23,839 nucleotides of DNA from the IMG/VR virus record IMGVR_UViG_2671180458_000011, one strand, 5' to 3'. The DNA is from a virus. Taxonomy: Duplodnaviria > Heunggongvirae > Uroviricota > Caudoviricetes. The notes under the pieces were generated by a model that did no database searches, was not told the origin of the DNA, and saw only the letters and a list, made by a program, of their open reading frames with translations. A program made the position numbers and the translations under genes. Below, piece by piece: positions 15,865-23,839 of the stretch; positions within the stretch are counted from its first letter, which is position 1; each line of letters starts with the position of its first letter.

Positions 15865-16065
15865 ATGTATCGAAACATACGGTGCCGACACTGCAATAAG
15901 CTACTGGCACGGGCCAGTTTCAGTTATCTGGAAGTAAAATGTCCGCGCTGTAAAACCCTCAATCAAATCACATCTCCGAGCGCCACAGAGCACCCCACAT
16001 ACACAAGGAAATCCTGTCGTGGGGAACAGAAAGCAAGCCACATCCCGTATCATCAGCACGCCTGA
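15865..16065 (+). CDS. com: Com-like zinc-finger translational activator of mom
   Basis: [14 protein letters not shown]...VKCPRCKTL...EHPT matches the Mu Com four-cysteine pattern; AGGAGG Shine-Dalgarno 10 nt upstream of ATG 15865 (ORF track starts at TTG 15820); 3' end overlaps the next gene as in Mu. Confidence 0.7.
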
Positions 16066-16756
16066 ACTTATTCGCTATAACGACAATATCGTTGGTTATG
16101 GCTCCCGTGAGTTGCGGGTTGAGACAATAAGTTGCTGGCTGGCCAGACTGGTCATCGTCAATAAACATTACAGCCACCGTTTCGTAAATAACTCCTACCT
16201 TCATCTGGGCATATTTTCAGAACGGGAGCTGGTTGGCGTAATGCAATGGGGCTATGCCCTTAATCCAAACAGTGGTGCACGCGTCGTAACGGGCACGCGG
16301 AACCGTGAATATATGGAGCTTAACCGGTTATGGCTGCATGACTGTATGCCGAGAAACTCCGAATCAAGGGCAATCAGTTACGCGCTCAAGCTAATCAGGC
16401 AGCTTTATCCGCAGGTACAGTGGGTTCAGTCGTTTGCAGATGAGCGTTGTGGCTGTCTTGGTGTCGTGTATCAGGCAAGCAATTTTGATTATGTAGGCAG
16501 CCACGAATCAACATTCTATGAACTTGATGGCGAGTGGTATCACGAGATTTGCAGGAATGCCATTAAACGAGGCGGACAGCGAGGTGAACATCTGAGGGCT
16601 AATATCGACAGAGCCAGTGTTCATAAATTCCGTCAGTTTCGTTACATCCGGTTTCTGAACAAGAGGGCCAGAAAACGCCTCAACACAAAGCTATTCAAAG
16701 TCCAGCCTTACCCAAAACCACAAACAGTTAAAACTGGTTTAAAAGAGAGTGAGTGA
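16019..16756 (+). CDS. mom: Mom-like DNA modification protein
   Basis: 245-aa ORF (GTG start) beginning inside the 3' end of com, the characteristic com-mom overlap; last gene before the prophage right end as in Mu. Called from context, not from remembered sequence. Confidence 0.6.
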
Positions 16757-18044
16757 ACGCTTAAAAACTCATTCTAAAACCCAAAAGAAAAGCGCCGATT
16801 TAGTATCAAATAAGTTGCGTATCGGCGTTTTTCAGCGGTATCAAATGAAATGCAAATCGGTATCAAAAAAATCGCCGCGCTATAATAAGCAGCTCAGAGC
16901 TGCCAATAAAGTCACTAACGTGCTGGATACAGAACTCACATCAGCCCGTGCCGCGGAACGTAAGGCCCAGCAAACTGCACAACAAGGTATGAAGGAAGAA
17001 GAGCGAGAGTTGTGCGCGTCACATTTTCCAGTGGTGACTTTGGAGCAATTGCCTGACATTCGCGATTTAGAACGTCAACATGAGCGGGGAATTCAGCATG
17101 AAATTGAAAGAGTTAAAGCTGAACTACATCGACTGAACATTGAGTTGACCAAACGTATGTCTGAAGCCAAACGTGTGGATACCGGGGCGCTCGTTGAGGC
17201 AGGGGCTGATTTGGACGATATTACTGTTTATTTACAGCGTTTGCAGGAACTGACCGAAGAAGCCCTGCCGGAAAAGCTCAATCGCTTCCTTGATTATCTT
17301 AACCGTTCATCCGATGACGGCGTAACACAACTGCTTAGCCATATTGAGCATGAGGTGCTGGTGATTGAGGAGCGCCTCAATGAACTCAATGAAACTATGT
17401 TCAGGGTTGATTTTCAGCCGTATCGCTACCTGCGTCTGGATACCAAAAAAGTTGTCCATGAAAGCCTGCGCACGCTTGAAAAAGCACAGCGTCAGCTAAA
17501 TGCCGCCCGATTTGTTGATGATAATGGCGAGAGCTATTATAAGGCTTTGCAGATACTGGTGGCGCAATTGCGGGATGCTTGTGAACGAAACCGTACCCTG
17601 GGAGCAAAAGCGCTACTGGATCCCCGTTTTCGACTGGAGTTCGCCGTATCGGTGATGGATCGTCAGAGCGGAAATGTGATTGAGTCTCGTACCGGCTCAC
17701 AGGGTGGTAGCGGTGGAGAAAAAGAGATTATCGCTTCTTACGTGTTAACAGCTTCACTTAGCTACGCACTTTGTCCTGCGGGGAGCCGTTATCCGCTTTT
17801 CGGTACCATTATCCTTGATGAAGCCTTCTCCCGCAGTTCTCATGCGGTGGCGGGTAGGATCATTGCCGCGCTTAGAGAATTTGGCTTACATGCAGTATTT
17901 ATCACCCCCAATAAGGAAATGCGCCTGCTGCGTGACCATACTCGTTCGGCGATTGTTGTCCACCGGCGCGGTCAGAATTCCAATATGGCTTCTCTGAGCT
18001 GGGAAGAGCTTGAACGACACTACCAGCGACGGGGGAACGCGTAG
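16749..18044 (+). pseudogene. jetC 3' fragment: C-terminal half of a Wadjet SMC-like ATPase, truncated by the prophage
   Basis: Contains signature-like GSGGEKE, Walker B IILDEAF and an H-loop His but no Walker A; the first 48 codons or so (16749-16896) are a Lys-rich read-through of phage-end sequence; coiled-coil-like sequence begins about 16897. Confidence 0.6.
16800..16896 (+). repeat. prophage right-end repeat array (candidate transposase-binding sites) ending in CA
   Basis: Three direct copies of GTATCAAA at 16803, 16838 and 16860 plus ATCGGCG/ATCGCCG motifs; GCGTTTTTC at 16825-16833 resembles part of the Mu R-end; terminal CA at 16895-16896. Confidence 0.4.
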
Positions 18045-18045
18045 G

Positions 18046-19194
18046 ATGTATTCCCCAGATGAATTGCGTGAAAAGCTTGCCCGGCAGTGGGATAGCGCAA
18101 AACTTCGGGCTGAACGCTTACTGTCCCCCGGTAACTGGCCGCTCTGCCTGCCTATTGGTAAACCTTCCACGAAAATATTTGCAGAGCAGACTCAGCGCGT
18201 TTTGCAGCACGTACAGCGATGGAGGCAAGTTGCGGTTGGGCACGTGGAATGGGAAGCGGTGAGTTATCGGGCAAGTGATACACCAGTATTAATGCCGTTG
18301 CGCTGGATTCTGAATAGCCCTTCTGAGTGGATCAACGCCGCTGCGGATCCGGTTGTGAGCCGGGAATTTCGCTTGCTGGAAGGAATTATTGAACAAGTTA
18401 ATCCCATTTTTCACCCGCTGTTGGTAAAGCATCGCTCTCTCTGGCGGCACAAAGATCCGCAGGGCGTCATCAGCGCCGCCACGCTGGCCTGCCGATTAGA
18501 GCCGGGCTGCGCAAAAGGGCTGCCGTTAAGATTGCTTTCCGGGCAAGGAGTGGATACCAAATTTATCGAGAATAATATTTCGTTATTAACCCGACTGTTA
18601 GACGTGCGGTTTTCAGGAGAAGCCAGCGAGCAGGGATTAACAACTTTTCTTGATGCTTTTGATGAGTCCAGTCACTGGGTTTTAGTTGTACCATTATCAC
18701 CCGGCTTACTTCCTTTTAAAAAATGCCGGGTAACAACGGCGGAACTGGCAGAAACAACATTACCTGCGTCGCAAGTACTGGTGGTTGAAAATGAGCAGTG
18801 TCTGCATCATCTTCCAGCATTATCTGACACTATCGCGATTTTAGGCTGTGGCCTGGACGTGCAATGGCTATCCAGTTCTGTTCTGGATGAAAAACGCGTT
18901 GCTTATTGGGGGGACATGGATAGCTGGGGATTACTGATGCTGGCGAGAGCCAGGCGCTGTCGTCCGACGCTTGATGCCCTGCTCATGAACCGTGAGTTGT
19001 TTGAGCAGTATGCCAGTCATAGCGCCGTTCCAGAACCGGTCATAGCGAAGGAAGCTGTACCTGATGGCTTGCTTAACGAAGAGGCCGATTTTTATCGCTA
19101 CTTAACCCGTTTACCGTGTGGTCGTCTGGAGCAGGAGTTTTTGCCAGTGGGGATTGCGGAAGAGGTGCTTCTCAGGTGGGGAAAAGAGAGTTAA
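18046..19194 (+). CDS. JetD-like Toprim-domain protein (Wadjet subunit D)
   Basis: ATG at 18046 two nt after the jetC stop (ORF track starts at TTG 18010); about 382 aa with VVENE and YWGDMD motifs typical of the DUF2220 Toprim-like domain. Confidence 0.65.
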   Translation: MYSPDELREKLARQWDSAKLRAERLLSPGNWPLCLPIGKPSTKIFAEQTQRVLQHVQRWRQVAVGHVEWEAVSYRASDTPVLMPLRWILNSPSEWINAAADPVVSREFRLLEGIIEQVNPIFHPLLVKHRSLWRHKDPQGVISAATLACRLEPGCAKGLPLRLLSGQGVDTKFIENNISLLTRLLDVRFSGEASEQGLTTFLDAFDESSHWVLVVPLSPGLLPFKKCRVTTAELAETTLPASQVLVVENEQCLHHLPALSDTIAILGCGLDVQWLSSSVLDEKRVAYWGDMDSWGLLMLARARRCRPTLDALLMNRELFEQYASHSAVPEPVIAKEAVPDGLLNEEADFYRYLTRLPCGRLEQEFLPVGIAEEVLLRWGKES

Positions 19195-19552
19195 AAAAGT
19201 CATGCTTGCTCTGGAAGGTTATTTACGCGGTATTTTGTAGTGGTTGTTGCGAAAGTCTGCGTTGATGGTCCTGATACCTTACCGGGTAGAGGGACTTTCC
19301 ATCAGTCAGTTTAGATACTGTGGCAACTGTCGCCTTTAGGTGGACAAATGCATAAATTATTAAACTATTAAATTTCTTGTTTTCAGGCAGCAGAGAGAAG
19401 GTATATCAGAGGGTACTGAGGTGTATAAACGTCACGAACATCCGTGAAAAGGCGAAAAAAACCAGCCAATAGATAATGCTTTGCAATGGCCAGAAATCTA
19501 CCGTAGCCAGAAAGTGAAAAAGCCCCGCTTTGCAGCGAGGCCTTATGAATAG

Positions 19553-19575
19553 TGGTGCCCGGACTCGGAATCGAA
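19553..19575 (-). repeat. 3'-terminal 23 nt of tRNA-Phe (att-type direct repeat); not a functional tRNA
   Basis: Minus strand reads TTCGATTCCGAGTCCGGGCACCA, matching the 3' end of E. coli tRNA-Phe (T-loop, acceptor strand, CCA); sequence further upstream does not form a tRNA body. Confidence 0.65.
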
Positions 19576-19747
19576 GATTTCATTTATCATATTGATATTA
19601 ATCTCGTTTATTTGGTTTGATGAAAAATGTACCCTCTCTTGTACCCTCGGTCCCTTCTGGTGGTTTTTATGAGAACAAGTAGATCAAGATTTTTGTCATC
19701 AGAACACGTGTATTTTTGTGGGTTTTATTCCTGAGTTTTATTCCTTT

Positions 19748-20590
19748 TTATATCGCTAACGCTCCGGGATAGTGCTTAGCAATAATATCATTAAGCCTGT
19801 CAACCAGCTCTGGTTTCCTGAACGTGATGTGCGCGGAGCCCTTCTTAAAGTATCTGATGCTGAACATCTCATCTTCATAGTCCTCTTTACCCTGAACAGA
19901 CTGGACGTGATCATCCAGATGAATAGTGATGTTTTCCCGGTTGTCGGGGATCGGTTTGCCGCTGAACAGGTGTAGCATTCTTTCCAGATCAGCAAGTCGA
20001 TCTGCCTGTTGCCCGGTGATAAGATGAAAGCCCCACCGGTCCCACCTCATCAGGTTGTTGACGATAATTTTACTGCCAAATTTGCAGGGGCAATTGGTTT
20101 TGTAATTCCAGCTCAACCCTCTGAAGACGTTGATCACCCCCCGCTCAAACACCTCATCCTTATTCTGGTGCAGTTGTTCAAATGTGCTCAGAATGTTCGC
20201 TTCACTGATTTCCGGAAAATTATCGTATTCCAGTGACCGGTACCATGTATCACGGGCCTGTGCATCCATTAAGGAAAGCATCCCGGAACGTTGCATCAGG
20301 TCACGCCAGATTTCGCGATCGAGATTGCGTGTGATGGCTTTCATTGCGGTTTCAGGTTTCTCCATCAGCCAGCAACCGCAGTGAAAATTCTGTTTCATGG
20401 CCCAGTCCAGTGCGGTTTTACCGCCAATGCTTTCTGTCATTGCTGAGATTTCAGCCAGTTGCCGGATAAGTGTGTCGATTTGCAGCAGTGTACTCTTTCG
20501 TACAGCCAGAATGTGGAGGATACTGGTTGAGCAGATAACGTCCGTATGCCAGTTGACAACTTCCGGACGGGAGACTGTGATATCAGACAT
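19748..20590 (-). CDS. conserved hypothetical protein (280 aa; possibly DUF4942 family)
   Basis: Long ORF at the extreme island end next to the att repeat; family name is a tentative recollection. Confidence 0.5.
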   Translation of the reverse strand: MSDITVSRPEVVNWHTDVICSTSILHILAVRKSTLLQIDTLIRQLAEISAMTESIGGKTALDWAMKQNFHCGCWLMEKPETAMKAITRNLDREIWRDLMQRSGMLSLMDAQARDTWYRSLEYDNFPEISEANILSTFEQLHQNKDEVFERGVINVFRGLSWNYKTNCPCKFGSKIIVNNLMRWDRWGFHLITGQQADRLADLERMLHLFSGKPIPDNRENITIHLDDHVQSVQGKEDYEDEMFSIRYFKKGSAHITFRKPELVDRLNDIIAKHYPGALAI

Positions 20591-20674
20591 AATCGATATT
20601 CCTTTTTGCAGATAAATGAAAACGCCAGCCCTGTTCAGGCTGGCGTCAGTGGAATGAAGTCTGGTGAGTGAGAG

Positions 20675-20872
20675 TCACCGGTTCTGGTGCAGAAGCTGCA
20701 ACTGGCGCAGTGTACGGATATCTTCCCTGGCCTGTTCAATGCAGGGCAGCAGTGCTGCCGAATCCGTTTTATCCTCATCGTTGTCAAAGATAATTCCCGA
20801 TTCGCAGTCGATATTGTCCTGCAGCCACGCAATCAGAATATCCAGCGCTGTTTCCGTGGTTAATGATTTCAT
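20675..20872 (-). CDS. small conserved protein (65 aa; YeeW-like, possibly DUF957)
   Basis: ATG at 20872, 11 nt after the stop of the upstream gene; the ORF track's longer version (to 20917) overlaps that gene. Confidence 0.45.
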   Translation of the reverse strand: MKSLTTETALDILIAWLQDNIDCESGIIFDNDEDKTDSAALLPCIEQAREDIRTLRQLQLLHQNR

Positions 20873-20883
20873 GTTGTTTCTGG

Positions 20884-21372
20884 TTACCAGTTGAAAGTGG
20901 GTAAACCCGGCAGGCATTCAGCGCTGGCATCCAGATGAATGAGACTGACGCCATAACGTCGGGTAAGTGTGACAACCAGACGGCGGAACGTTTTTGACAG
21001 CCCCAGGCGTTTAAGCCGCAGAACCGGGTATGACCACGCATCGGTACGTAACAGATATCCGCTACCTGTGAAATGAATCCATTCTGATTCGCCGGTGTCA
21101 TTCGTCTGATGTGACAGCGAGTACAGCCAGGCGTTGTCCTTTGCAGTGATATGCGCGGTACTGCAGCGTATGCCGGTCAGGGCAGCAAATGGTGGCGTGC
21201 AGTCTGTTGAGACCCGGTCAGATTCATCAACAACACGAAGGGAGTGGCCATTGTCGCAGACCACGTTAATCAGTTCAGCGAGATTAACACCATCGACGTC
21301 AACGACAATTCGTCCCATGTTCAGCGTCTGCACGTTAACGCTGTCTGCTTCCAGCGTCAGAGTCAGTTTCAT
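20884..21372 (-). CDS. conserved hypothetical protein (162 aa; possibly DUF5983), translationally coupled to cbtA
   Basis: Start overlaps the cbtA stop (ATGA-type overlap at 21369-21372). Confidence 0.5.
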
Positions 21373-21746
21373 TGTTTCGCCTCCGGATGCTTCCCCTGGG
21401 TAATGTTATTTACCGTTCTGTAATTGTCGCGGGTCATCAGGCCGGTCGCCCTGCGAGCCCGGAGGATATCGATGCTGTTTATTAACTGAGAACGGGTACA
21501 GGCATTGAATTCCGGCTGGTCGGTACGCACCAGTGCGTATTTTTCAACAAGAAAGTTCACTGCATCGCACAGTGAAATGCCAGCTTCAATATGCTGCTCA
21601 ATCACACGTTCATCGGCAAACGGTGTGTCATTCAGTGTGAGGCCATAATGCTGGTCCAGCAGTCGGATGAGCAGTGTCTGCCAGATGGTGACGGGAGACG
21701 GGCAGCGAGATACCTCCCGTACATGTGTGTCGGATAATGTTTTCAT
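21369..21746 (-). CDS. cbtA: CbtA/YeeV-family toxin (type IV TA, cytoskeleton-targeting)
   Basis: [14 protein letters not shown]...[48 protein letters not shown] matches the CbtA/YeeV/YkfI/YpjF family; start taken at the internal ATG 21746 (ORF track 21848 extends into the antitoxin gene). Confidence 0.85.
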
Positions 21747-21792
21747 CTTAAGTTCTCTGTAACTGGTAGTGCTAAAGGTGAGAGCTTCGGGG

Positions 21793-22167
21793 TTATGAGG
21801 TGGTTGCGGGTGCCTGTGCCGGATAAACAGCCAGATAAACGTAACCACAGGAGCCGAGGGTGTCGGCTTCGCAGGTCAGCCCTTTTGCATACAGCGTGAC
21901 GGTATGCTGATTTCGGGGATTCAGTTCACCGCTGGTGAGCATGAGTTCCAGTTGTTTCATCAGCAGCGGAAAGGCCTGGTCCAGATGGTATGCATCTGCG
22001 TCGCTGAAGCGGCCGCTGATACCGGCGCGGTCGGCAAGGTAATGCAACCGGTTACCCTCCTGCACCAGACGGGCGCCAAAACAGGGTTTCACTGTGCAGG
22101 GAAGCCCCCACCAGGGGCGGTCGTGATTGTCGTCGGGATGAGTTATCCCGGAGAGTTTGTCTGACAC
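21793..22167 (-). CDS. cbeA: CbeA/YeeU-family antitoxin (type IV TA)
   Basis: 124 aa with [16 protein letters not shown]...[19 protein letters not shown], the YeeU/YfjZ/YafW family pattern; directly upstream of the toxin. Confidence 0.85.
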
Positions 22168-22329
22168 GATAAAATCCTCTCTGAAAAGTGGTTAAGAATG
22201 GTTTAACGATGACAGGTCAGCCGGGGCACTGACCGGTTTCGGTGAAGATGTATGCATTGATGAGAATGGCCTCATCCACAGCGGCGTCTGAGGTCATCTG
22301 GTCGTACTCGTTTCCCGGGTGACGGAACA

Positions 22330-22551
22330 TCAGTTCAGGGTGACGCTCATCAGCCGGACATACGGGCCAAAACTGTCCTTATGGCGTTCAGCAAACACGG
22401 CCAGCACACCGGGAATATCCTGCACTTCACGACCGGTATACGCTTCAGTGCTGCCGTGCCAGCGGTATTTGCCGGTACAGAAAGGAAAAAGACGGGATGC
22501 CGGATGTTGTTGGTGAATACGCATGGCTTCACCACGGGTGATGATTTTCAT
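22330..22551 (-). CDS. YeeT/YpjJ-like protein (DUF987)
   Basis: 73 aa, MKIITRGEAMRIHQQHPASRLFPFCTGKYRWHG pattern of the YeeT family; conserved position between RadC-like and antitoxin genes. Confidence 0.8.
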   Translation of the reverse strand: MKIITRGEAMRIHQQHPASRLFPFCTGKYRWHGSTEAYTGREVQDIPGVLAVFAERHKDSFGPYVRLMSVTLN

Positions 22552-22613
22552 AGTGTGATACCTCTGAAGACAGAAGATAAAAGTGAAAACAAGCGTGATG
22601 TGGTTGTGACGGG

Positions 22614-23105
22614 TTAAAGCAGACCATGTTCGGCAAAGGAGAAAACCTGGTTGCCACCGACTATCAGATGGTCCGGCACCCGGATATCCACCAGGCCCAG
22701 TGCCTGTACCAGACGTTCCGTGATAAGGCGGTCTGCCTTGCTGGGTGTGACTTCACCGGACGGGTGATTGTGCGCCAGCACCACGGCAGCGGCATTGTGG
22801 TACAGGGCGCGTTTAATCACTTCCCGGGGATGGACTTCCGTGCGGTTGATGGTGCCGGTGAAGAGGGTTTCACCGGCAATCAACTGATTCTGGTTATTCA
22901 GATACAGCACCCGGAATTCTTCACGCTCCAGTCCCGCCATGTTCAGAATCAGCCATTCCCGTGCCGCACGGGTGGAGGTGAAGGCCACGCCGGGTTCATG
23001 AAGATGGCGGTCCAGGGTTTTCAGGGCCCGCAGAATGAGACTGCGCTCACCGGGCGTCATCTCTCCGGGCAGAAAGGAAAGTTGTTGCATTGTGCTTCTC
23101 TCCAT
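22614..23105 (-). CDS. RadC-like JAB-domain protein (YeeS/YfjY/YkfG family)
   Basis: 163 aa with the HNHPSG JAMM-type motif; likely start at the internal ATG (MQQLSFLPGE). Confidence 0.85.
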   Translation of the reverse strand: MERSTMQQLSFLPGEMTPGERSLILRALKTLDRHLHEPGVAFTSTRAAREWLILNMAGLEREEFRVLYLNNQNQLIAGETLFTGTINRTEVHPREVIKRALYHNAAAVVLAHNHPSGEVTPSKADRLITERLVQALGLVDIRVPDHLIVGGNQVFSFAEHGLL

Positions 23106-23591
23106 TCAGTCGATGATGCGCATAATGGCGCTGCATTCCGGATGCTGCAGGGCGTAATCCCGCAACCGGTAATAATGGACCGTCATGGCATAACACTCCG
23201 TACGACAGGCATGATGACTGTACGTCATCAGACAGGCGGCAATGCCGGCGGCTTCCGGGCTCATTTCAGCGCGGTTACCGTTCATGGCATTGAACAGTAC
23301 CCAGTTTTCGCCATCATCGTCATCCGGTTCGGGGGCCATAAATGCGCCACCGTTGTTCAGTGTGTACAGATTCCAGATACCACCGCAGTAGTCTTCGCAA
23401 AGACGGTCCATCCAGCCGAAGATACGGGGCTCCAGGGTCACCCACTGTGGAATGAGGCCAAAATGCTGCGGCCAGAAGCTGATGCGCTGTTCATCAGGGA
23501 CTATGGTGGCAACCAGCTGAGACTGGTCATTCCCTGATGCAGCGGTTACGGAAACAGAAGATGTGGTGGAATTATGTGAAATGGTTTTCAT
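23106..23591 (-). CDS. antirestriction protein (YfjX/YafX/KlcA-ArdB-like)
   Basis: 161 aa; sequence pattern of the CP4-type antirestriction family; immediately upstream of the RadC-like gene as in CP4 islands. Confidence 0.75.
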   Translation of the reverse strand: MKTISHNSTTSSVSVTAASGNDQSQLVATIVPDEQRISFWPQHFGLIPQWVTLEPRIFGWMDRLCEDYCGGIWNLYTLNNGGAFMAPEPDDDDGENWVLFNAMNGNRAEMSPEAAGIAACLMTYSHHACRTECYAMTVHYYRLRDYALQHPECSAIMRIID

Positions 23592-23645
23592 GAAATGACT
23601 CCTTAAAGGACAAATAAATGCGTGGTTTTCAGGGTAATGGCTGAA

Positions 23646-23839
23646 TCAGCCCACGCCCCCCAGCCGCGTTTCCCCCCTCACCCACCATGCGCGGCTGAGC
23701 TTACTGTCAGTGTCAATGCCGTGAATCGCACGGGTATGGATACGTTTCCCTTTAGCCCTGCGCCCTGAAATTCCGCCTTTCAGCATCTTCTCCTGAATGG
23801 TCTGATAAGCACTCCACAGCTCCTTCCCGTACTCCTCCC
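23646..23839 (-). CDS. 3' end of an unidentified CDS running off the window edge (partial)
   Basis: Minus-strand frame open from the window edge to a TGA at 23646-23648, translating ...EEYGKELWSAYQTIQEKMLKGGISGRRAKGKRIHTRAIHGIDTDSKLSRAWWVRGETRLGGVG; not in the ORF track because its start is outside the window. Confidence 0.4.
   Translation of the reverse strand, partial: EEYGKELWSAYQTIQEKMLKGGISGRRAKGKRIHTRAIHGIDTDSKLSRAWWVRGETRLGGVG

Follow-up and report, generated by a model that had tools for sequence, protein, structure and literature searches.

The window analysed here is a stretch of 23,839 nucleotides (nt) of viral DNA (Caudoviricetes; IMG/VR record IMGVR_UViG_2671180458_000011), in which three genes belonging to domain of unknown function (DUF) families follow the toxin gene cbtA at one end of a genomic island; these three genes, here called the trio, are the subject of this report. 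The initial annotation described them as three co-oriented genes after cbtA, and the open reading frame (ORF) list, in which all three are present on the minus strand at the coordinates given, together with the coding sequences (CDS) of RefSeq, bears this out. The order of transcription on the minus strand is cbeA, cbtA, the DUF5983 gene (162 amino acids, aa), a 65-aa gene, and the DUF4942 gene (280 aa), with 11 nt between the DUF5983 stop and the start of the 65-aa gene and a spacer of 84 nt between the stop of the latter and the DUF4942 start. The comparison locus, L001, is an Escherichia coli locus in RefSeq that is 99.6% identical to the window. The features of the region are as follows.

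21793..22167, minus strand: cbeA, a YeeU-family type IV antitoxin gene (124 aa), given for context; Pfam CbeA_antitoxin, 1.5e-54; same RefSeq annotation in L001.
21369..21746, minus strand: cbtA-family toxin gene (125 aa); Pfam CbtA_toxin, 4.9e-59; its TGA stop overlaps the next ATG; ratio of nonsynonymous to synonymous substitution rates (dN/dS) ~0.2.
20884..21372, minus strand: DUF5983 gene (Aec77 / L0008; 162 aa), N-domain at residues 4–58 and C-domain at residues 69–162.
20675..20872, minus strand: gene of a 65-aa acidic protein (NCBI 'DUF957'; Aec78 / L0009); identical CDS in RefSeq.
20621..20647, minus strand: GC-rich hairpin with 11 pairs, terminator-like in the scan, that separates DUF4942 from the 65-aa gene; candidate attenuator or leaky terminator.
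19748..20590, minus strand: DUF4942 gene (Aec79, YdiA family; L0010; 280 aa); Pfam PF13708, 5.3e-70.
19576..19747, minus strand: AT-rich island arm from the DUF4942 stop to the att repeat, with short direct repeats, as read from the sequence.
19553..19575, minus strand: attR-type repeat of 23 nt, TTCGATTCCGAGTCCGGGCACCA, identical to the tRNA-Phe 3' end by exact string match.
19519..19544, minus strand: terminator-like hairpin past the tRNA-Phe fragment and outside the island (scan match, 11 pairs plus a T-tract), probably the native terminator of the tRNA gene.

The trio had been placed at an island tip, and this is correct, since the 23-nt tRNA-Phe repeat sits 172 nt past the DUF4942 stop, homology to E. 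coli islands stops at ~19542, and DUF4942 is also the last gene before an att-type junction in other genomes. The island is of the CP4-44/CP4-57 type and integrated at tRNA-Phe, and the trio makes up its attR-proximal end; no full tRNA was found in the window. The arm at 19576–19747 contains direct repeats (GGAATAAAAC twice and GGGTACA twice), the Shigella locus L005 has a comparable GGGTA(T/C)A pair, and such repeats are possible integrase or excisionase arm sites. Further from the junction, the gene order of the island arm is DUF932, DUF905, KlcA-like antirestriction, RadC/JAB, DUF987, CbeA, CbtA, DUF5983, DUF957, and DUF4942, in which the antirestriction, RadC/JAB, and DUF987 genes were seen in the window and DUF932 and DUF905 in the matching locus L001.

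The three ORFs are genuine genes under purifying selection and not chance ORFs. The same three CDS are annotated by RefSeq in L001, and six other loci from E. albertii, Shigella, E. ruysiae, Citrobacter, and Yokenella share the order cbeA, cbtA, DUF5983, 65-aa gene, DUF4942, with protein identities as low as 58–66%. O91, O104:H21, and bovine isolates are examples of strains that carry the locus intact. Pairwise dN/dS values against the window were 0.08–0.39 for DUF5983, 0.075–0.18 for the 65-aa gene, and 0.11–0.15 for DUF4942, with ~0.2 for cbtA, the synonymous sites being near or at saturation in the comparisons with Citrobacter and Yokenella. In every comparison the annotated frame had the lowest ratio of nonsynonymous to synonymous differences (pN/pS) of the six frames, and it was the sole frame free of stops in all of them.

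The families had been tentatively named as DUF5983, DUF957, and DUF4942, and these assignments are right. The DUF5983 protein carries both domains of its family, DUF5983_N (PF25638; 5.8e-31, 106.4 bits against a cutoff of 27) and the C-terminal domain (PF19419; 1.6e-21, 76.8 bits against a cutoff of 27), and the DUF4942 protein matches PF13708 with 235.4 bits against a cutoff of 25 and covers profile positions 1–189 of 190. For the 65-aa protein the family name rests on NCBI, which calls the 100%-identical WP_000839249.1 and many homologues 'DUF957 domain-containing'; the protein had no match in current Pfam (even at E ≤ 10), NCBIfam, PHROGs, or PADLOC, and a precomputed Pfam domain covered this region in 0 of 120 homologues, so the DUF957 model (legacy PF06117) has apparently been dropped from Pfam. 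The accompanying label 'YeeW-like' was on the wrong gene, because YeeW of E. coli K-12 matches the N-terminal part of DUF5983 (residues 5–59; 65% identity over 55 aa; 5e-24) and gave no BLASTP alignment with the 65-aa protein at E ≤ 100. The profile and structure searches that the initial annotation had proposed confirm DUF5983 and DUF4942 but provide no functional match from PDB, NCBIfam, or PADLOC: NCBIfam and PADLOC gave no matches for the trio, PHROGs gave families of unknown function and one 'DNA methyltransferase' family, and no helix-turn-helix or other DNA-binding domain and no enzymatic domain was detected in the trio proteins with Pfam. The names Aec77, Aec78, and Aec79 are seen on close homologues of the trio. 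Many DUF5983 proteins are called 'CadC family transcriptional regulator' in UniProt, a name that may stem from adjacency to cad genes and is probably not a functional clue. The E. coli tRNA gene pheU adjoins cadC. On the Enterobacter plasmid pUPC1, a DUF5983-family gene lies directly upstream of cadB-cadA (L020 4884–5429).

Copies of each gene were counted in 5,426 complete E. coli genomes, where cbtA occupies 13,773 places in 5,012 genomes, DUF5983 12,945 places in 4,946, the 65-aa gene 13,277 places in 4,956, and DUF4942 11,872 places in 4,594. Each trio gene is present in ~85–91% of these genomes, usually in two or three copies, and the block is nearly universal and multi-copy in this species. 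Co-occurrence statistics had been suggested earlier as a check; in these genomes the copy numbers of the trio genes track that of cbtA closely, near 1:1. Many E. coli copies are partial, with 3,669–4,102 genomes having a copy that covers at least 80% of each trio gene vs. 4,884 for cbtA. The DUF5983 family is narrow, with 901 clusters at 90% identity, of which the 120 best-scoring with an organism name come from Enterobacteriaceae; DUF4942 is broad, with 2,188 clusters at 50% identity, and the 150 best-scoring of their representatives are mostly stand-alone proteins of 260–290 aa.

Relatives of all three families also occur on plasmids, as counted by tblastn: DUF4942 homologues with 35–39% identity in 4,819 plasmid records (4,001 conjugative), the 65-aa family in 1,429 (1,307 conjugative), and the DUF5983 C-domain in 258. 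The neighbours in the plasmid contexts inspected were psiB, psiA, ardA, ssb, antirestriction genes, and the origin of transfer (oriT) or relaxase genes, and not cbtA. For example, the IncI1 plasmid pECOH45 has the order DUF905, ParB, psiB, psiA, ardA, further genes, DUF4942, MobC (on the opposite strand), and nikA/nikB, such that DUF4942 is the final leading-region gene before oriT and is co-oriented with psiB, psiA, and ardA. Similarly, DUF4942 of the IncL plasmid pOXA-48 lies within a block with an antirestriction gene and ssb, upstream of mobA/traI, and in MOBP pLAP2_050004 and a Serratia plasmid a DUF5983 C-domain gene is the last before MobC or mobA/oriT/relaxase, after ParB, psiB, and psiA, with no cbtA nearby. 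Plasmid DUF5983 proteins share only the C-domain with the window protein (41% identity over residues 68–162). In R27 (IncHI1), a 102-aa homologue with 49% identity to the 65-aa protein precedes a DUF3085 gene, again without cbtA, and no relation was found between this DUF3085 and DUF5983. A leading-region location is thus seen for the plasmid homologues of DUF4942 and of the DUF5983 C-domain and not for this chromosomal copy.

The same families stand out in published data on leading regions, where DUF5983/Aec77 is family 72, with 618 members, a median position of 2, and p = 6.6e-199 (Samuel et al. 2024, PMC11541004, Supplementary Table 1), a second DUF4942 family is number 76, and DUF905 and DUF945/DUF932 are families 2 and 3 (PMC11541004). 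DUF4942 and DUF5983, with published median positions of 1, 2, and 6 and strand +1, are among the families most enriched in leading regions, and they, DUF905, and DUF945/DUF932 are all on the strand that is transcribed from the incoming single strand (PMC11541004). The genes, their families, and this enrichment are therefore already present in databases and in a published supplementary table. In the island arm, the counterparts of leading-region families are DUF905, DUF932, antirestriction, DUF5983, and DUF4942, and because several of the island genes upstream of the toxin-antitoxin pair, RadC among them, belong to leading-region families as well, the arm looks like a leading region with its oriT-proximal end towards attR.

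By analogy with these plasmids, the trio at the tip of this CP4-type island may represent establishment or anti-defence genes of the leading-region type, a reading that we favour and to which we give about an even chance. The three proteins would be produced upon entry of the element into a cell, or upon its derepression there, and would probably act as establishment or anti-defence factors and not as dedicated regulators of CbtA. A further extension is tentative and somewhat doubtful: the cbtA-distal trio could be the oriT-proximal end of a leading region that has been kept intact and faces attR, the islands being conjugatively transferred or mobilised or descended from elements that were, with the trio as first-wave anti-defence genes, DUF4942 as a new class of factor for evading restriction or defence, and the coupling of CbtA with DUF5983 possibly reflecting recruitment of the toxin for retention of the cassette.

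The C-domain of DUF5983 would be a portable leading-region module, and its N-domain an addition that is seen here only in cbtA-coupled copies. The protein is proposed by DPAM to have a glyoxalase/bleomycin-resistance (VOC)-like fold (10.1101/2024.01.30.577995), which conflicts with an HHpred hint of 'transcriptional regulator' (PMC11541004). A contig of a metagenome-assembled genome of Candidatus Sumerlaeota (L012 2140–2382) encodes an 80-aa stand-alone DUF5983 C-domain (Pfam 1.2e-10) among small unannotated ORFs, and since this is a distant phylum, the C-domain is an independently mobile module well beyond the Enterobacteriaceae.

The AlphaFold2 model of DUF4942, built from a diverse alignment of 57 sequences, is confident (predicted local distance difference test, pLDDT, 89.1; predicted template modelling score, pTM, 0.81) and predicts a long N-terminal helix, a helical bundle at residues 79–159, and a small alpha/beta domain at residues 174–273; W95, G151, D201, H254, N267, and P275 are invariant in the family. 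No match to the model fold was found among solved structures, including known DNA-binding or relaxosome proteins, and neither DUF4942 nor DUF5983 matched a PDB sequence in sequence or profile searches. DUF4942 was also considered as a class I S-adenosylmethionine-dependent methyltransferase and rejected, with no Rossmann fold in the AlphaFold2 model and no methyltransferase match in Pfam. In P0328 and P0330 (468 aa) and in phrog_6263, 'DNA methyltransferase', DUF4942 is fused upstream of an MTS methyltransferase domain, and the 'methylase' names given to DUF4942 in databases arise from these rare fusions. Because a Rossmann fold is lacking and a few phage or mobile-element relatives are fused to a methyltransferase, DUF4942 might be a module that recognises nucleic acid or another target, or one that interferes with restriction. 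The gene neighbourhoods of two distant DUF4942 proteins, made up solely of small unannotated ORFs of phage- or element-like character, had no diagnostic value.

The 65-aa protein has an isoelectric point of 4.3 and a net charge of -7, which makes it very acidic, and it might belong to the helical, probably dimeric proteins that act by binding to a host protein and blocking it. Its reading frame is also open in an 80-aa form that begins at an ATG at 20917 and overlaps the DUF5983 stop, and database homologues are called with 65, 80, or 95 aa or fused with DUF5983. An AntiFam entry, ANF00264 ('frameshifted phage protein', listed as spurious), adjoins DUF5983 beside cbtA/cbeA, and a 2026 preprint defends it as a genuine protein, with a homodimer predicted at high confidence (10.64898/2026.06.09.728211). 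Judging by position, ANF00264 is probably the 65-aa gene. The variability in calls of the 65-aa gene matches the annotation variability behind the AntiFam listing, and its 65-aa core is real by selection analysis, which supports keeping this gene, probably the AntiFam-listed family, as a real gene. The programmed frameshift suggested to join DUF5983 and the 65-aa gene (10.64898/2026.06.09.728211) is not needed, as a stop, a variable spacer of 11–30 nt, and a conserved ATG separate the two ORFs.

Expression of the trio genes appears to be organised in two parts. The stop of cbtA and the start of DUF5983 share an ATGA overlap, with a GGAGG Shine-Dalgarno sequence 7 nt upstream in the window; the overlap is kept in 8 of 8 loci from Escherichia to Yokenella, most of which have a purine-rich Shine-Dalgarno-like stretch upstream, and the translational coupling of DUF5983 to cbtA by a stop/start overlap, as claimed by the initial annotation, is thereby upheld. 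DUF5983 would be translated by coupling to cbtA through this overlap and the strong Shine-Dalgarno sequence. The spacer ahead of the 65-aa gene is 11, 19, or 30 nt depending on the locus, the ATG of this gene is conserved, and its own Shine-Dalgarno sequence is weak in the window, so that translation by proximity or re-initiation may be supposed. The hairpin that follows consists of a stem GACGCCAGCC-loop-GGCTGGCGT and then UUUUCAUUU, a U-rich, interrupted U-tract (20647–20621, minus strand). It is one of five terminator-like sites in the 4.6-kilobase region scanned, its RNA fold has a free energy of -28.1 kcal/mol (z = -3.8), and its 7-bp core GCCAGCC/GGCTGGC is invariant in six loci, the loop and flanks differing in Citrobacter; it looks like a conserved attenuator, leaky terminator, or mRNA-stabilising element. 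Since DUF4942 is preceded both by this conserved hairpin and by its own AAGGA Shine-Dalgarno sequence, it may not be simply co-transcribed with cbtA, and its translation would begin from that Shine-Dalgarno sequence on transcripts that extend through the hairpin or are initiated past it. This arrangement suggests joint expression of cbtA, DUF5983, and the 65-aa gene, from which DUF4942 would be separated at least in part. An Rfam scan of 19200–23839 at E ≤ 1 gave no matches, and a promoter scan found no sigma-70 consensus sites in the same interval.

Several points weigh against the reading of the trio as establishment or anti-defence genes. No biochemical or genetic test of any trio gene was found in the literature searched, in line with the earlier statement that these DUF genes have no assigned function, and leading-region enrichment is a matter of where genes sit and not of what they do. 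PADLOC defence models gave no match for any trio protein at E ≤ 0.1. The window contains no recognisable oriT or relaxase, and comparison of the island tip with the oriT regions of the plasmid loci L016, L017, and L019 gave only chance 8–11-mers. The R27 context of the 65-aa homologue gave no demonstrated leading region, and the AlphaFold2 model of DUF5983, from a shallow alignment of 21 close homologues, is of low confidence (pLDDT 33, pTM 0.21). In addition, a pure anti-defence role does not explain the strict ATGA coupling across genera or the restriction of full-length DUF5983 to cbtA-linked copies.

These last two points agree better with another explanation, that the trio genes (or DUF5983, if not all three) are accessories of the CbeA/CbtA type IV module, possibly as a third component that tunes the activity, stability, or expression of the toxin, and this is close to the earlier proposal that the genes belong to the same operon as the toxin and may modulate it. 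The proposal is sustained in part, by the ATGA overlap in all eight loci with its Shine-Dalgarno-like stretch in most, and by the near 1:1 copy numbers with cbtA in E. coli. Among the chromosomal loci retrieved, full-length DUF5983 with its N-domain occurs only directly after cbtA, and the sole full-length plasmid DUF5983 with a listed annotation (H58) also adjoins a CbtA-family gene. A pan-genome study of toxin-antitoxin systems likewise describes DUF5983 as a constant downstream 'partner' of CbtA (PMC10790755), and the N-domain, seen here only in cbtA-coupled copies, might interact with CbtA. However, all three families occur in plasmid contexts without cbtA, and because each does so, no trio family is a dedicated toxin-antitoxin component. 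DUF4942 also stands behind the conserved hairpin with its own Shine-Dalgarno sequence, and DUF5983 has no similarity to CbeA. The occasional predictions of CbtA and DUF5983 in a single ORF (P0198 and P0212) might also be taken as support for an accessory role, but they are singletons and likely frameshift or annotation artefacts.

The pairs of E. coli K-12 speak against an accessory role as well, being followed by a truncated YeeW or by no trio gene. The CbtA-family pairs of K-12 have been characterised there for toxicity and neutralisation and behave as complete toxin-antitoxin pairs. Downstream of the three CbtA-type pairs of this strain lie a truncated YeeW (CP4-44), a 63-nt pseudogene (CP4-6), and nothing (CP4-57), with no intact trio. 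In CP4-44 (L002, NC_000913.3, 4941–5258), yeeW comprises the N-terminal 59 codons of DUF5983, and ~30 nt further on are the last 30 codons of the 65-aa gene. CP4-44 lacks the DUF5983 C-domain, the start of the 65-aa gene, and DUF4942, and since only these two pieces remain, an internal deletion is indicated. Taken together, an accessory role of the trio is judged unlikely.

Two observations on the same proteins stand apart from this weighing. As a second CbeA-like antitoxin DUF5983 was rejected, because an hhalign alignment of CbeA with DUF5983 had a probability of 0.2% and DUF5983 has no CbeA match in Pfam. The single-member proteins P0198, P0212, P0027, P0003, and P0043 fuse CbtA with DUF5983 or DUF4942, or antirestriction/RadC with DUF4942, and are probably frameshift, assembly, or deletion artefacts among paralogous island copies.

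It is also rather improbable that the trio encodes DNA-processing or regulatory factors of the element end, such as relaxosome components, excision accessories, or regulators of transfer genes, without an anti-defence role. Plasmid homologues do lie directly beside oriT, MobC, and the relaxase genes nikA or mobA, no further gene stands between DUF4942 and the att repeat in the island, the HHpred hint for DUF5983 points to a transcriptional regulator (Samuel et al., PMC11541004), and orf35/yggA, another oriT-adjacent leading-region gene of IncM/IncI plasmids, regulates tra genes (PMC6112013). These observations are set against trio proteins in which Pfam detects no helix-turn-helix or other DNA-binding domain, a DUF4942 fold unmatched by known DNA-binding or relaxosome proteins, a window without a relaxase, and a UniProt name, 'CadC family regulator', that may reflect only the adjacency of cad genes.

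A self-contained three-gene system, for instance a defence or addiction module that merely lies beside cbtA, would agree with how closely the three genes are spaced and with their unchanging order in different genera, but it is very improbable given that, in the plasmid contexts inspected, each family lacked the other two in its vicinity and that no PADLOC match and no enzymatic domain was detected. Finally, that the trio genes are passengers without function, or the remnants of an old mobile element in decay, as might be read from the many partial copies (3,669–4,102 genomes at ≥ 80% coverage vs. 4,884 for cbtA), from the deleted versions of K-12, and from the listing of AntiFam ANF00264, probably the 65-aa gene, as spurious (10.64898/2026.06.09.728211), is largely refuted by the selection analysis (dN/dS 0.08–0.39 vs. 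Citrobacter and Yokenella, with the annotated frame the best of six and stop-free) and, with distant homologues kept in unrelated plasmids, has hardly any likelihood left.

The establishment or anti-defence reading, if true, would provide a function for three long-standing DUFs. The trio genes are among the commonest uncharacterised genes of E. coli, and thousands of resistance plasmids (IncI1, IncL/pOXA-48, and IncHI types among them) carry relatives at the end that enters the cell first; should these genes protect incoming DNA from host defences, they would matter for how antibiotic resistance spreads. The informative assays would shift to conjugation and establishment in defence-proficient recipients, beyond toxin-antitoxin assays alone.

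Other parts of the window and of the island provide additional observations. The RadC-like JAB gene of the island is located at 22614–23105, and its K-12 homologue yfjY (L023 2887–3369) is now lfgB, 'CP4-57 prophage protease'. LfgB has been reported to cleave the antitoxin MqsA (PMC10846083), which hints, by analogy, that other genes of the island arm may act on host toxin-antitoxin or defence proteins. Outside the island, the window from 11500 to ~16885 matches, with 99.9% identity, the right end of a Mu-like prophage of O157:H7 genomes, which carries a Gin-type resolvase, DUF6645/SASA tail-fibre genes, Com, and Mom (16019–16756). In the ORF at 16749–18044, inside which the Mu-like homology ends, a JetC-like protein is reduced to its C-terminal SbcC/RAD50 Walker-B head; an intact JetD (18010–19194) follows. 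Because the homology stops within the truncated JetC ORF, the prophage appears to have inserted in, and inactivated, jetC of an island-adjacent Wadjet anti-plasmid system.

Among the related known systems is the CbeA/CbtA (YeeU/YeeV) system itself, to which the trio is adjacent, co-oriented, coupled, and, in E. coli, co-inherited, but from which it differs in that its proteins have no sequence relation to CbeA or CbtA. The yeeW gene of K-12 CP4-44 has the same position directly after cbtA and, as DUF5983 does, overlaps the cbtA stop by 4 nt, whereas the window carries an intact trio and K-12 an internally deleted one. Counterparts of the trio directly after cbtA are also known as L0008-L0010 in the LEE island of O157, as Aec77-79, and as orf54-56 in the SRL island, where orf54 corresponds to L0008/YeeW, orf55 to L0009/DUF957, and orf56 to L0010/DUF4942, in agreement with the order in the window (PMC6980539). 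The DUF4942-methyltransferase fusions are alike over the whole DUF4942 region (profile positions 71–285 of 548 in phrog_6263; 37–40% identity to the fused proteins) and differ in that the window protein ends where the MTS domain would begin. Plasmid leading regions differ from the locus in several respects, as the latter lies on a chromosomal tRNA-Phe island without an oriT or relaxase in view, the island DUF5983 has an extra N-terminal domain and is coupled to cbtA, and the families on plasmids are usually found singly and not as a trio. They are nevertheless alike in the Pfam families themselves, with protein identities of 35–41%, in the neighbouring antirestriction, DUF905, and DUF932 genes, and in polarity, the genes being the last of a co-oriented block beside the end of the element.

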